Source of the DNA: an uncultured Desulfobacterales bacterium
Lineage (GTDB): Bacteria; Desulfobacterota; Desulfobacteria; Desulfobacterales; SURF-7
Direction: 5' to 3'
Assembly: GCA_964578935.1 (NCBI GenBank)
Contig: CAZOEW010000018.1
Span: forward strand, 6,340-30,339
Length of the DNA stretch: 24,000 nt
The translations under genes and the position numbers were made by a program. Of this stretch, positions 22,731-23,708 are shown one piece after another. Under the pieces are notes generated by a model. It was given only the letters and a program-made list of their open reading frames with translations, was not told the DNA's origin and searched no databases. Within the stretch, counting starts at the first letter, position 1. Each line of letters begins with the position of its first letter.

Positions 22731-23708
22731 ATGATAGAATTCAATATTCAAAACTGGATTTCGATGGCCTCTTTTATGGGTGCCGGTATTGCCATGGGCT
22801 TCAGCGCCATCGGATCCGCAATCGGTGAAGGGTATACAGCTGCAGAGGCAACTACAGCAATCTCACGGAATCCGAAGTTATCGGATGAAATTTTAAAGAT
22901 GATGTTAATGGGCCAGGCCATAGCGGAATCTGCAGCGATTTTTGGTCTGGTTATCGCGATGATGCTTCTTTTTACCAAATTTCCCCATATCTCCTGGCTT
23001 ACAGTAAGCGTTTTAATCGCTGCAGGATTTTCCATGGGTCTCGGGGCTATCGGATCGGGAGTGGGATCCGGTTTGGCTTCGGCTTTAGCCTGTAAAGGAC
23101 TGGCAAGACAGCCTGGAGCAAAAAGTACTCTTCAGGCAAACATGTTGATCGGTTCCAGCATTGCTCAAACACCGGCAATTTTTTCTCTGGTAACCGCACT
23201 TATTTTGATTTTTACGGATTTTTCAGCCCGTCCGATCTCGCCTACATGGGCGGCGATTCTAGGAGCCGGATTTGCTTCGGGTTTTGGAGCTATCGGTTCC
23301 GGACTTGGAGACGGTCTTGTTGCCGGAGCATGCTGTGAAGGCACGGCGCGTCAGCCCATGGCCGCAAAAGCGGTATTAAGTGTCATGTTTTTGGGAATGG
23401 CGGTTACCGAGACAACAGCCATTTACGGTCTGCTGGTCAGTTTCATTCTGATATTCAGAGAGTCTGCTGCAACAGAAGCCCTTGCACCGGCCATGGCGCT
23501 CCTTGGGGCGGGTCTTTGCATGGGTATTGGTGCCATCGGACCCGGTATTGGAGAGGGATTTACCGCCCGCAGCGCGGTAGGCGGGATTGCAAAAAATTCA
23601 GAAGCGAGAACGGAACTCACACGTGTAATGCTTGTGGGTCAGGCGGTTTCGGAGTCAACCGGTATCTATTCACTGGTTATCGCGCTGGTTTTGATTTTTG
23701 TTGTCTAA
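22731..23708 (+). CDS. Fused F-type ATP synthase c subunit with four tandem hairpin modules in one polypeptide (about 8 TM helices)
   Basis: The ATG directly follows the atpB TAA (22728-22730). The 325 aa are uninterrupted and contain four ~70-aa units, each with a G-rich helix 1 (GAG..MG.GAIG.G.G.G), a polar loop and helix 2 (G.A..E/Q....(F/Y).L.......F). The units begin at aa 12, 92, 173 and 254 and are joined by 10-11-aa linkers. Confidence 0.85.
   Translation: MIEFNIQNWISMASFMGAGIAMGFSAIGSAIGEGYTAAEATTAISRNPKLSDEILKMMLMGQAIAESAAIFGLVIAMMLLFTKFPHISWLTVSVLIAAGFSMGLGAIGSGVGSGLASALACKGLARQPGAKSTLQANMLIGSSIAQTPAIFSLVTALILIFTDFSARPISPTWAAILGAGFASGFGAIGSGLGDGLVAGACCEGTARQPMAAKAVLSVMFLGMAVTETTAIYGLLVSFILIFRESAATEALAPAMALLGAGLCMGIGAIGPGIGEGFTARSAVGGIAKNSEARTELTRVMLVGQAVSESTGIYSLVIALVLIFVV
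22764..22973 (+). repeat. c-subunit hairpin module 1 (aa 12-81)
   Basis: Sequence: MASFMGAGIAMGFSAIGSAIGEGYTAAEATTAISRNPKLSDEILKMMLMGQAIAESAAIFGLVIAMMLLF. The helix-1 residue is E33 (22827-22829) and the helix-2 carboxylate is E66 (22926-22928). Confidence 0.8.
23004..23213 (+). repeat. c-subunit hairpin module 2 (aa 92-161); the carboxylate is replaced by Gln
   Basis: Sequence: VSVLIAAGFSMGLGAIGSGVGSGLASALACKGLARQPGAKSTLQANMLIGSSIAQTPAIFSLVTALILIF. The helix-1 residue is S113 (23067-23069). The position aligned with the ion-binding Glu is Q146 (CAA, 23166-23168). Confidence 0.8.
23247..23456 (+). repeat. c-subunit hairpin module 3 (aa 173-242)
   Basis: Sequence: WAAILGAGFASGFGAIGSGLGDGLVAGACCEGTARQPMAAKAVLSVMFLGMAVTETTAIYGLLVSFILIF. 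The helix-1 residue is D194 (23310-23312) and the helix-2 carboxylate is E227 (23409-23411). Confidence 0.8.
23490..23699 (+). repeat. c-subunit hairpin module 4 (aa 254-323)
   Basis: Sequence: AMALLGAGLCMGIGAIGPGIGEGFTARSAVGGIAKNSEARTELTRVMLVGQAVSESTGIYSLVIALVLIF. The helix-1 residue is E275 (23553-23555) and the helix-2 carboxylate is E308 (23652-23654). By my hand alignment, 32 of 70 positions are identical to module 1. Confidence 0.8.

Follow-up and report, generated by a model that had tools for sequence, protein, structure and literature searches.

Can four c subunit hairpins of an F-type ATP synthase be carried naturally on one polypeptide, and what would such a protein do in a rotor? 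The question is raised by a 24,000-nucleotide stretch of DNA (here called the window) from an uncultured Desulfobacterales bacterium (GenBank assembly GCA_964578935.1, contig CAZOEW010000018.1, positions 6,340 to 30,339 of the forward strand), in which a preliminary description, made from the letters alone, had read a single gene following atpB as four fused c hairpins. We call its product c4. The number of ion sites per c-ring sets the ion/ATP ratio, the central chemiosmotic "gear," which is of critical importance to anaerobes that live close to the thermodynamic limit. To our knowledge, the two-hairpin c1 of Acetobacterium woodii and its close acetogen relatives is the only natural F-type c subunit that breaks the rule of "one hairpin, one site."

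One gene for four F-type c hairpins

The c4 gene occupies 22731..23708 on the plus strand and, on inspection of the open reading frame (ORF), encodes 325 amino acids with no internal stop. Its ATG directly abuts the TAA stop of atpB (22728-22730) with zero gap, as had been described for this uninterrupted 978-nucleotide frame. The Pfam model PF00137 matched c4 in four discrete segments (E=7.3e-61; 202.7 bits, with a cut-off of 24), which is the outcome that the preliminary description had predicted for a profile check. A hidden Markov model built from the modules placed the four hairpin units at a period of 80/81/81 amino acids, where 80 to 81 had been proposed, and returned linker sequences identical to those quoted earlier. 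The modules and linkers, all on the plus strand, are as follows; site residues are given for each module and the non-helical stretch in the structural model for each linker.

Module 1: 22764..22973, amino acids 12-81; E33/I64/E66/S67/A68/F71, carboxylate retained
Linker 1: 22974..23003, amino acids 82-91, TKFPHISWLT; 82-88 non-helical
Module 2: 23004..23213, amino acids 92-161; S113/Q146/T147/P148/F151, Gln replaces the carboxylate
Linker 2: 23214..23246, amino acids 162-172, TDFSARPISPT; 162-168 non-helical
Module 3: 23247..23456, amino acids 173-242; D194/E227/T228/T229/Y232, the minority "live" state
Linker 3: 23457..23489, amino acids 243-253, RESAATEALAP; 243-250 non-helical
Module 4: 23490..23699, amino acids 254-323; E275/V306/E308/S309/T310/Y313, a complete two-carboxylate Na+ motif

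An AlphaFold2 model of c4 alone, made from an alignment of 53 sequences, showed eight long helices paired in four hairpins, each made of a Gly-rich helix 1, a polar loop, and helix 2, with a mean predicted local distance difference test score (pLDDT) of 94.7 and a predicted template modeling score of 0.90. The helices of each hairpin are joined by short turns at R46-N47-P48, R126-Q127-P128, R207-Q208-P209, and N289, and the linkers have 7 to 8 non-helical residues each, with block pLDDT values of 86 to 92. With eight helices in four hairpins, the N terminus, the C terminus, and all three linkers lie, in the model, on one side and the four polar loops on the other, in agreement with the topology of eight transmembrane helices and same-side termini that had been proposed. 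By analogy with all F-type c subunits, the side of the linkers and termini is periplasmic. In the 53 aligned homologues, the loop residues R46/P48, Q127/P128, and R207/P209 are invariant, as are E66 of module 1, Q146, T147, and P148 of module 2, and F164, P171, and T172 of linker 2. E33 is found in at least 90% of them, and linker 1 is conserved in length and variable in sequence.

Clearly, c4 departs in size from the canonical F-type c subunit, a single hairpin of ~8 kDa, yet its best NCBIfam matches were the F0F1 subunit C equivalogs, scored over cut-off (TIGR01260, 151.5 against 43.95; NF009999, 223 against 124). It stayed under the cut-offs of all V-type K models, for example, at 111 against 188 and 104 against 211. 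The neighborhood is likewise F type, with subunit a (atpB) upstream in the window and subunits b' and b downstream in the five related loci compared below. An assignment as a V/A-type proteolipid (subunit K/c) was rejected on both of these grounds. The N-ATPase c subunit (TIGR03322) was also rejected: there is no atpDCQRBEFAG operon, the observed order being atpZ-I-B-c-c-b'-b without F1 genes, and the 179.8 bits of c4 pass the cut-off of 130.85 only because four hairpins are summed, the single-hairpin c subunit encoded downstream reaching 65.4. By its gene, domains, predicted fold, and conservation, c4 is a genuine single-polypeptide, eight-helix, four-hairpin F-type c subunit.

The four modules have diverged considerably. 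Pairwise identities are 27 to 32 of 70 residues (39 to 46%), and modules 1 and 4 agree at 32/70 upon recalculation, exactly the number that had been counted by hand. DNA identity is ~53% for module pairs 1-3, 1-4, and 3-4, the only pairs measured. Tandem Repeats Finder detected no tandem repeats in the gene, and direct repeats consisted only of 61 to 81% matches at conserved motifs. Divergence of this kind, with no tandem repeat, rules out a recent or assembly-made duplication. Module 4 is the nearest of the four to the single-hairpin c subunit, with 48/70 identity; recent gene conversion between the two was considered and rejected, the DNA identity being 77/132.

The c3-c6 family and its ion sites

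How far the fusion extends beyond this genome had been left to a search for orthologues. It proved to be widespread, and it is not a singleton: c4 belongs to a family of three- to six-hairpin proteins (c3 to c6, collectively c(n)) in Desulfobacterales. A word-indexed search yielded 2041 relatives, and an exhaustive search of 1.84 billion representatives yielded 1805 hits. Hairpin numbers and site residues were counted in the best 120 of the 2041 together with the window's own protein, giving 89 four-hairpin proteins (304 to 325 amino acids), 17 five-hairpin proteins (403 to 405), and 15 six-hairpin proteins (434 to 490). The fused gene recurs as a continuous ORF in hundreds of independent assemblies from NCBI, ENA, JGI, and Logan, among them closed contigs of 4.4, 4.6, 5.7, and 7.0 Mb, and it is this recurrence that, in place of read-level data, bears out the uninterrupted module junctions. 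The named carriers are metagenome-assembled genomes (MAGs) of Desulfobacteraceae, Desulfobacterales, or Thermodesulfobacteriota, a Desulfosalsimonas sp., Desulfarculaceae, and "Candidatus Magnetomoraceae," which are multicellular magnetotactic bacteria. All fused copies are annotated in the databases as plain "ATP synthase F0 subunit C," so the family is also of relevance to annotation.

Six loci were compared: one c3 locus (L007), three c4 loci (the window, L001, and L002), one c5 locus (L003, gene at L003:8001-9218), and one c6 locus (L004, gene at L004:8001-9455). L001, from the Desulfobacteraceae MAG SURF_7, is the closest relative, with a c4 that is 80% identical and synteny on both sides. 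Between the window and L001, the ratio of nonsynonymous to synonymous substitution rates (dN/dS) for c4 is ~0.12 at a dS of ~1.0, with values of 0.06 to 0.13 for single modules and 0.13 for module 2, the one without a carboxylate. All four hairpins of c4 are under purifying selection. The linkers in the same comparison show less sequence constraint than the modules and are conserved in length.

Each module position of c4 is 79 to 81% identical between species and 40 to 50% identical to the other positions. Identity between species so far above that between positions indicates that the c4 fusion is old, as the preliminary description had proposed in preference to an assembly duplication. Sequence comparison also indicates that module positions are orthologous across the c3 to c6 forms: first modules are 65 to 70% identical across forms, penultimate modules 63 to 65%, and last modules 63 to 66%, and the last module is the one closest to the single-hairpin c subunit (64% identity). 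In c5 and c6, the additional hairpins are duplicates of the blank, module 2 type (58 to 73% identical), and the three-hairpin form consists of module types 1, 2, and 4 with sites E/Q/E.

Where, then, could ions bind? In the numbering of Ilyobacter tartaricus and Fusobacterium nucleatum, one hairpin contributes residue 32 (Q or E) and E65 to a Na+ site and the neighboring hairpin S66 and the V63 carbonyl; Y70 and a water held by T67 complete it (PMC3692424). The corresponding helix 2 residues of c4 are E66, Q146, E227, and E308, and their helix 1 partners are E33, S113, D194, and E275. The preliminary description had given each of the four units an E/Q site. The four hairpins stand, but the carboxylate is present in modules 1, 3, and 4 (E66, E227, and E308) and replaced in module 2, so that the window's c4 offers three ion sites and one blank (Q146) instead of four sites. 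Residues at positions 32/65/66/67/70 in the 89 four-hairpin proteins are as follows.

Module 1: E/E/S/A/F; E65 in 89/89
Module 2: S/Q/T/P/F; Q in 89/89
Module 3, majority: G or S/Q/T/T/Y; 76/89
Module 3, the window's subtype: D/E/T/T/Y; 13/89
Module 4: E/E/S/T/Y with V63; 89/89

Positions 32 and 65 of module 3 co-vary perfectly, D with E in 13/13 and G or S with Q in 76/76. Such exceptionless co-variation is expected if the two residues make up a single two-carboxylate site, to be retained or lost only as a unit. In a midpoint-rooted neighbor-joining tree, the proteins with the D/E state form two groups, one at either end, a weak hint that this state may be ancestral. Module 4 and the single-hairpin c subunit both carry E32/V63/E65/S66/T67/Y70 and so match the F. 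nucleatum Na+ site at all of its residues. In c5 and c6, a carboxylate is found only in module 1 (17/17 and 14/15, respectively), the last module having switched to N32/Q65, and these proteins contain four or five consecutive Gln hairpins.

That no four-hairpin F-type c subunit had been described, as the preliminary description suspected, agrees with our reading of the literature: we found no description of an F-type c subunit with more than two hairpins in full-text literature, a coverage that does not include the 2015 review of hybrid rotor distribution by Brandt and Müller. Reviews and primary papers from 2008 to 2022 report 2, 3, and 13 hairpins in V/A-type enzymes only, with A. woodii c1 as the sole F-type exception (PMC2359735, PMC9171764, PMC7594442), and a 2026 paper reports two to four separate atpE copies in Desulfatiglandales, which are not fusions. 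The c3-c6 family of sulfate-reducing bacteria is thus apparently both widespread and undescribed. A natural F-type family of three to six hairpins with graded site loss, in the globally important sulfate-reducing Desulfobacterales, is a natural experiment on rotors passing non-conducting positions. It provides a handle on the determination of ring size and possibly an explanation of tuned ATP yield or Na+ extrusion.

Gene order, precedents, and the putative hybrid ring

The genes of the Fo operon in the window, all on the plus strand, are as follows.

21410..21673: atpZ-like small membrane protein gene (PF09527, E=9e-16)
21660..22043: atpI, ATP synthase protein I, an assembly factor (PF03899, E=9e-8, 32.8 bits against a cut-off of 25.1)
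22056..22730: atpB, Fo subunit a of the stator (PF00119, E=8e-51; TIGR01131, 133.9 bits against a cut-off of 102.6)
22731..23708: four-hairpin c subunit gene (c4), 325 amino acids, ATG abutting the atpB stop
23709..23823: spacer between c4 and the single-hairpin c gene, with a strong AGGAGG ribosome-binding site at its end
23824..24000: single-hairpin c subunit gene, recognized from its translation and truncated by the window end (82 amino acids in relatives)

The ORF listed for the atpZ-like gene begins with TTG at 21395; comparison with L001 makes ATG 21410 the likelier start, and an equivalent gene occupies the equivalent position in L001 to L004 and L007. The atpB translation carries the conserved FRLFGN arginine motif. 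The order atpZ-atpI-atpB-c(n)-c(82 amino acids)-b'-b is invariable in these five c3, c4, c5, and c6 loci, in which the full-length 82-residue orthologues of the single-hairpin c are mutually 91% identical and have E/E/S/T/Y sites. At the five loci compared for translation signals, the c(n) ATG always lies 0 to 4 nucleotides after the atpB stop with no strong Shine-Dalgarno sequence (5/5), and the single-hairpin c gene always has an AGGAGG-type site 5 to 9 nucleotides upstream (5/5). From these signals, we infer that translation of c(n) is coupled to that of the single-copy subunit a and that the single-hairpin c is translated independently and strongly, an arrangement that would suit a complex with few copies of c(n) and many monomers. 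The possibility of a regulatory RNA or terminator between the two c genes was rejected: the fold z-score was -0.46, the spacer has no terminator-like site, and an Rfam search of the window gave no matches. The spacer does contain a 15-codon ORF, MAVLPFFRIIRYGNK, at 23718-23765 on the plus strand, right behind AAGGAG; the spacer is only ~30 nucleotides long in L003 and L004, so this ORF is not conserved and is probably meaningless.

The nearest precedent is A. woodii c1 (atpE1), a component of an F/V-hybrid Na+ ring. It was the best solved match of c4 by sequence (4bem_J, E=7.5e-25) and by fold (4BEM; TM-score 0.82 normalized to the target and 0.47 normalized to the query, root mean square deviation 1.7 Å over 166 columns), and no solved chain spanning four hairpins was found among the structure matches of c4. 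The A. woodii gene order is atpB-atpE1-atpE2; there, as here, a fused multi-hairpin c directly follows atpB and precedes a single-hairpin c gene, one hairpin has Gln in place of Glu, and the site is of the Na+ type. The differences are that c1 has two hairpins rather than four, one live site of two rather than three of four, and a Q32-type site rather than the E/D32 two-carboxylate type, and that its host is an acetogenic Firmicute whereas the c4 hosts are Desulfobacterales. The two hairpins of c1 are 59% identical to each other, 59 to 61% identical to the F. nucleatum c subunit, and only 36 to 46% identical to the modules of c4. This low identity, taken from an identity matrix rather than a full phylogeny, suggests that the Desulfobacterales fusion is probably independent of the acetogen fusion. 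The A. woodii ring is made of nine c2/3 and one c1 (PMC9171764), and Clostridium aceticum c1 is a parallel case.

Other systems resemble c4 in single respects. The F. nucleatum c11 ring (PDB 3ZK1) has the same E32/V63/E65/S66/T67/Y70 set as module 4 and the monomer, with 57% identity to the monomer of the window's family and 55% to module 4, but it is homomeric, with single hairpins, no fusion, and no blank sites. V/A-type proteolipids (Enterococcus hirae NtpK, eukaryotic c and c'', and the 3- and 13-hairpin proteins of Methanocaldococcus jannaschii and Methanopyrus kandleri) share the fold, and in them tandem hairpin duplication within one polypeptide is often accompanied by loss of carboxylates (PMC2359735, PMC9171764). 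They belong to a different enzyme class, however, and the V-type c, c'', and K subunits, the next-best fold matches of c4 with target-normalized TM-scores of 0.76 to 0.85, are only 18 to 24% identical to it. Engineered fused c subunits (Bacillus PS3 c10, and those of Escherichia coli from the Fillingame laboratory) are, like c4, F-type hairpins joined by short linkers and are functional (PMC8809890); unlike c4, they are artificial and made of identical repeats, and a single E-to-Q hairpin abolished synthesis in the Bacillus PS3 c10, whereas the Gln hairpins of c4 are conserved.

In light of these comparisons, we propose, with a probability of about 0.65, that c4 is part of the rotor and that it and the monomers assemble into one hybrid Na+-binding ring. 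It would be a rotor component of a Na+-coupled F1Fo ATPase or ATP synthase, the Na+ specificity being suggested by motif identity only, and together with several copies of the downstream 82-residue c subunit would form one heteromeric c-ring, in the manner of A. woodii c1 with c2/c3. Three things speak for co-assembly: the gene order as in A. woodii, the constant presence of the monomer gene, and the translation signals. Hairpins 1 (through E66), 3 (E227 with D194), and 4 (E308 with E275) would carry the ion, and module 2 (Q146) would be a permanently uncharged blank, passing subunit a without an ion. A ring with fewer ion sites than hairpins would have a lower ion/ATP ratio, and the ratio would take other values in relatives that have 3, 5, or 6 hairpins and more Gln sites. 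We infer in this way the copy number per ring, the co-assembly with the monomer, the coupling to Na+, the effect on the ion/ATP ratio, and the direction of operation, whether making ATP or pumping Na+. The preliminary description had expected a covalent tetramer to confine the ring to multiples of four hairpins unless mixed with monomers; with a single-hairpin c gene always downstream, a mixed ring is likelier and that constraint probably does not apply.

All four characterized Na+ F-type rings have 11 hairpins (PMC7594442, Table 1). If this number, which is purely assumed here, held for the Desulfobacterales rings as well, their compositions would be as follows.

Window c4: one c4 and seven monomers, 10 sites, 3.3 Na+ per ATP, a count equal to that of A. 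woodii
Majority c4 (E/Q/Q/E): one c4 and seven monomers, 9 sites, 3.0 Na+ per ATP
c5: one c5 and six monomers, 7 sites, 2.3 Na+ per ATP
c6: one c6 and five monomers, 6 sites, 2.0 Na+ per ATP

The engineered single-chain c10 is active, and defective sites in it are least harmful when adjacent (PMC8809890), which would explain why the blanks are clustered in one polypeptide. Several points weigh against a hybrid ion-driven rotor. In the Bacillus PS3 fused c10, a single E56Q abolished ATP synthesis (PMC8809890), so that Gln hairpins cannot be presumed harmless and can be tolerated only through co-adaptation. It is also difficult to see how ion flow could drive a rotor through the four or five blanks that follow one another in c5 and c6, and, together with the E56Q result, these blanks raise the possibility that some family members may be mainly ATP-driven Na+ pumps. 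The stoichiometry argument from translation signals is indirect, the composition of the ring is predicted from the genes, which leaves some room for a homomeric c4 ring, and F1 genes are not adjacent to the Fo operon in L001 to L004 and L007. One Desulfobacteraceae genome has been described with two F-type ATPases, of which one is split, as here, into separate F1 and Fo clusters (PMC4046663).

As a first alternative, homomeric c4 rings, for example, of three copies with 12 hairpins and 9 sites, would leave the single-hairpin c to a separate ring and give two rotor isoforms per operon. Hairpin numbers of 3, 4, and 6 do divide 12, and engineered all-fused rings function (PMC8809890), but five-hairpin forms are common (17 of the best 120) and 5 is not a divisor of 12, homomeric c5 or c6 rings would have only ~2 sites, far too few for ATP synthesis, and the monomer gene is always in the operon, 91% conserved, and separated from the c4 gene by neither a terminator-like site nor a stable RNA structure. 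We therefore regard such rings as unlikely. We give still less weight to a role outside the rotor, in which c4 would template or scaffold the assembly of the monomer ring or act as a pseudo-subunit with a regulatory or inhibitory function. The loss of the carboxylate from many hairpins of the family and the adjoining assembly-factor genes atpZ and atpI would suit such a role; yet the module 1 carboxylate is always kept, as is the full Na+ motif of module 4 in c4 proteins, the F1-contacting loop residues noted above are invariant, and the predicted regular arc of hairpins superposes on A. woodii c1 at 1.7 Å. Kept sites, invariant loops, and a hairpin arc are what is expected of a ring-resident subunit.

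The remaining two explanations deny that a four-hairpin protein exists in the cell. A polyprotein cut at the linkers into four single-hairpin c isoforms in a fixed 1:1:1:1 ratio could draw on the faster evolution of the linkers and on the conserved F..P..PT motif of linker 2, in principle a processing site. It is very improbable: c subunits offer no precedent, A. woodii c1 (4bem_J, a chain of 182 residues) and the V/A-type multi-hairpin proteins stay intact, and the linkers of c4 are short and confidently modeled. For an assembly or sequencing artifact, with four c genes misjoined or a repeat collapsed or expanded, no supporting point was found, and the low DNA identity of the modules, the absence of a tandem repeat, the recurrence of the continuous ORF in independent assemblies and closed contigs, and a dN/dS of 0.12 together make its probability negligible.

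Beyond the hybrid ring itself, a joint claim can be put forward only tentatively, and we consider it somewhat doubtful in full: that the Desulfobacterales possess an undescribed c3-c6 rotor series in which sites are switched in pairs at positions 32 and 65, blanks have been added by duplication of module 2, and lineage-specific ion/ATP ratios are set against a constant monomer. If it were true, the ratio of an 11-hairpin ring would fall from ~3.3 for the window type to ~2 for c6, below that of any known F-type enzyme, and there would be rotors with up to five consecutive non-conducting hairpins, not readily fitted by current models of Fo torque.

Neighboring genes and other multi-hairpin proteins

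Upstream of the Fo operon and divergent from it lie a sirohaem-synthase-like gene (NAD_binding_7/Sirohm_synth_M) and an MBL-fold hydrolase gene, at 19474-21042 on the minus strand of the window, L001:2975-4537, and L002:3867-5354. The arrangement is conserved in all three, without any evident functional connection to the ATP synthase. A different neighbor is found upstream of the c5 Fo operon, where an Mrp-type cation/proton antiporter cluster (MnhB/E/F/G, MbhD/E, and Proton_antipo_M) occupies L003:1-4290 on the minus strand; it would fit a Na+ cycle and was not seen at the other loci. The remainder of the window encodes ordinary housekeeping functions: a multihaem cytochrome, CheX, a TRAP-transporter binding protein, Era and a second GTPase of its domain family, HisC-like, HisG, and HisI proteins, PBP1A, a universal stress protein, a radical-SAM protein, RNase III, and DksA, besides the sirohaem-synthase-like and MBL-fold proteins.

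A second, unrelated family of four-hairpin c proteins was also encountered, with more than 50 clusters at the 50% identity level. Its members have 307 to 329 amino acids, are 27 to 33% identical to the window's c4, and show the site pattern E/Q/E/D-or-E; two of them are encoded at loci L005 and L006. At L005:7270-8966 (GCA_964495945.1, a contig of 830 kb), the c4 gene directly follows a subunit a gene (243 amino acids) and is followed by a glycosyltransferase gene; genes for b and F1 are absent within 8 kb. The host resembles a bacterium with a small genome, and the two genes may encode an orphan a+c4 pair that works without F1. Longer single-chain c/K proteins exist as well: P0155 (968 amino acids), P0206 (1042), P0198 (784), P0226 (631), and P0172 (524), in a set that includes proteins of 12, 9, and 8 hairpins and, in "Candidatus Gracilibacteria," one of 7. 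In all of these long proteins, the largest included, Glu is kept in nearly every hairpin. The largest are c/K proteins of 14 hairpins (P0139 and P0284, 1139 to 1147 amino acids) from Asgard MAGs (Promethearchaeota/Hodarchaeota), annotated as "hypothetical protein," which exceed the 13 hairpins known from M. kandleri.

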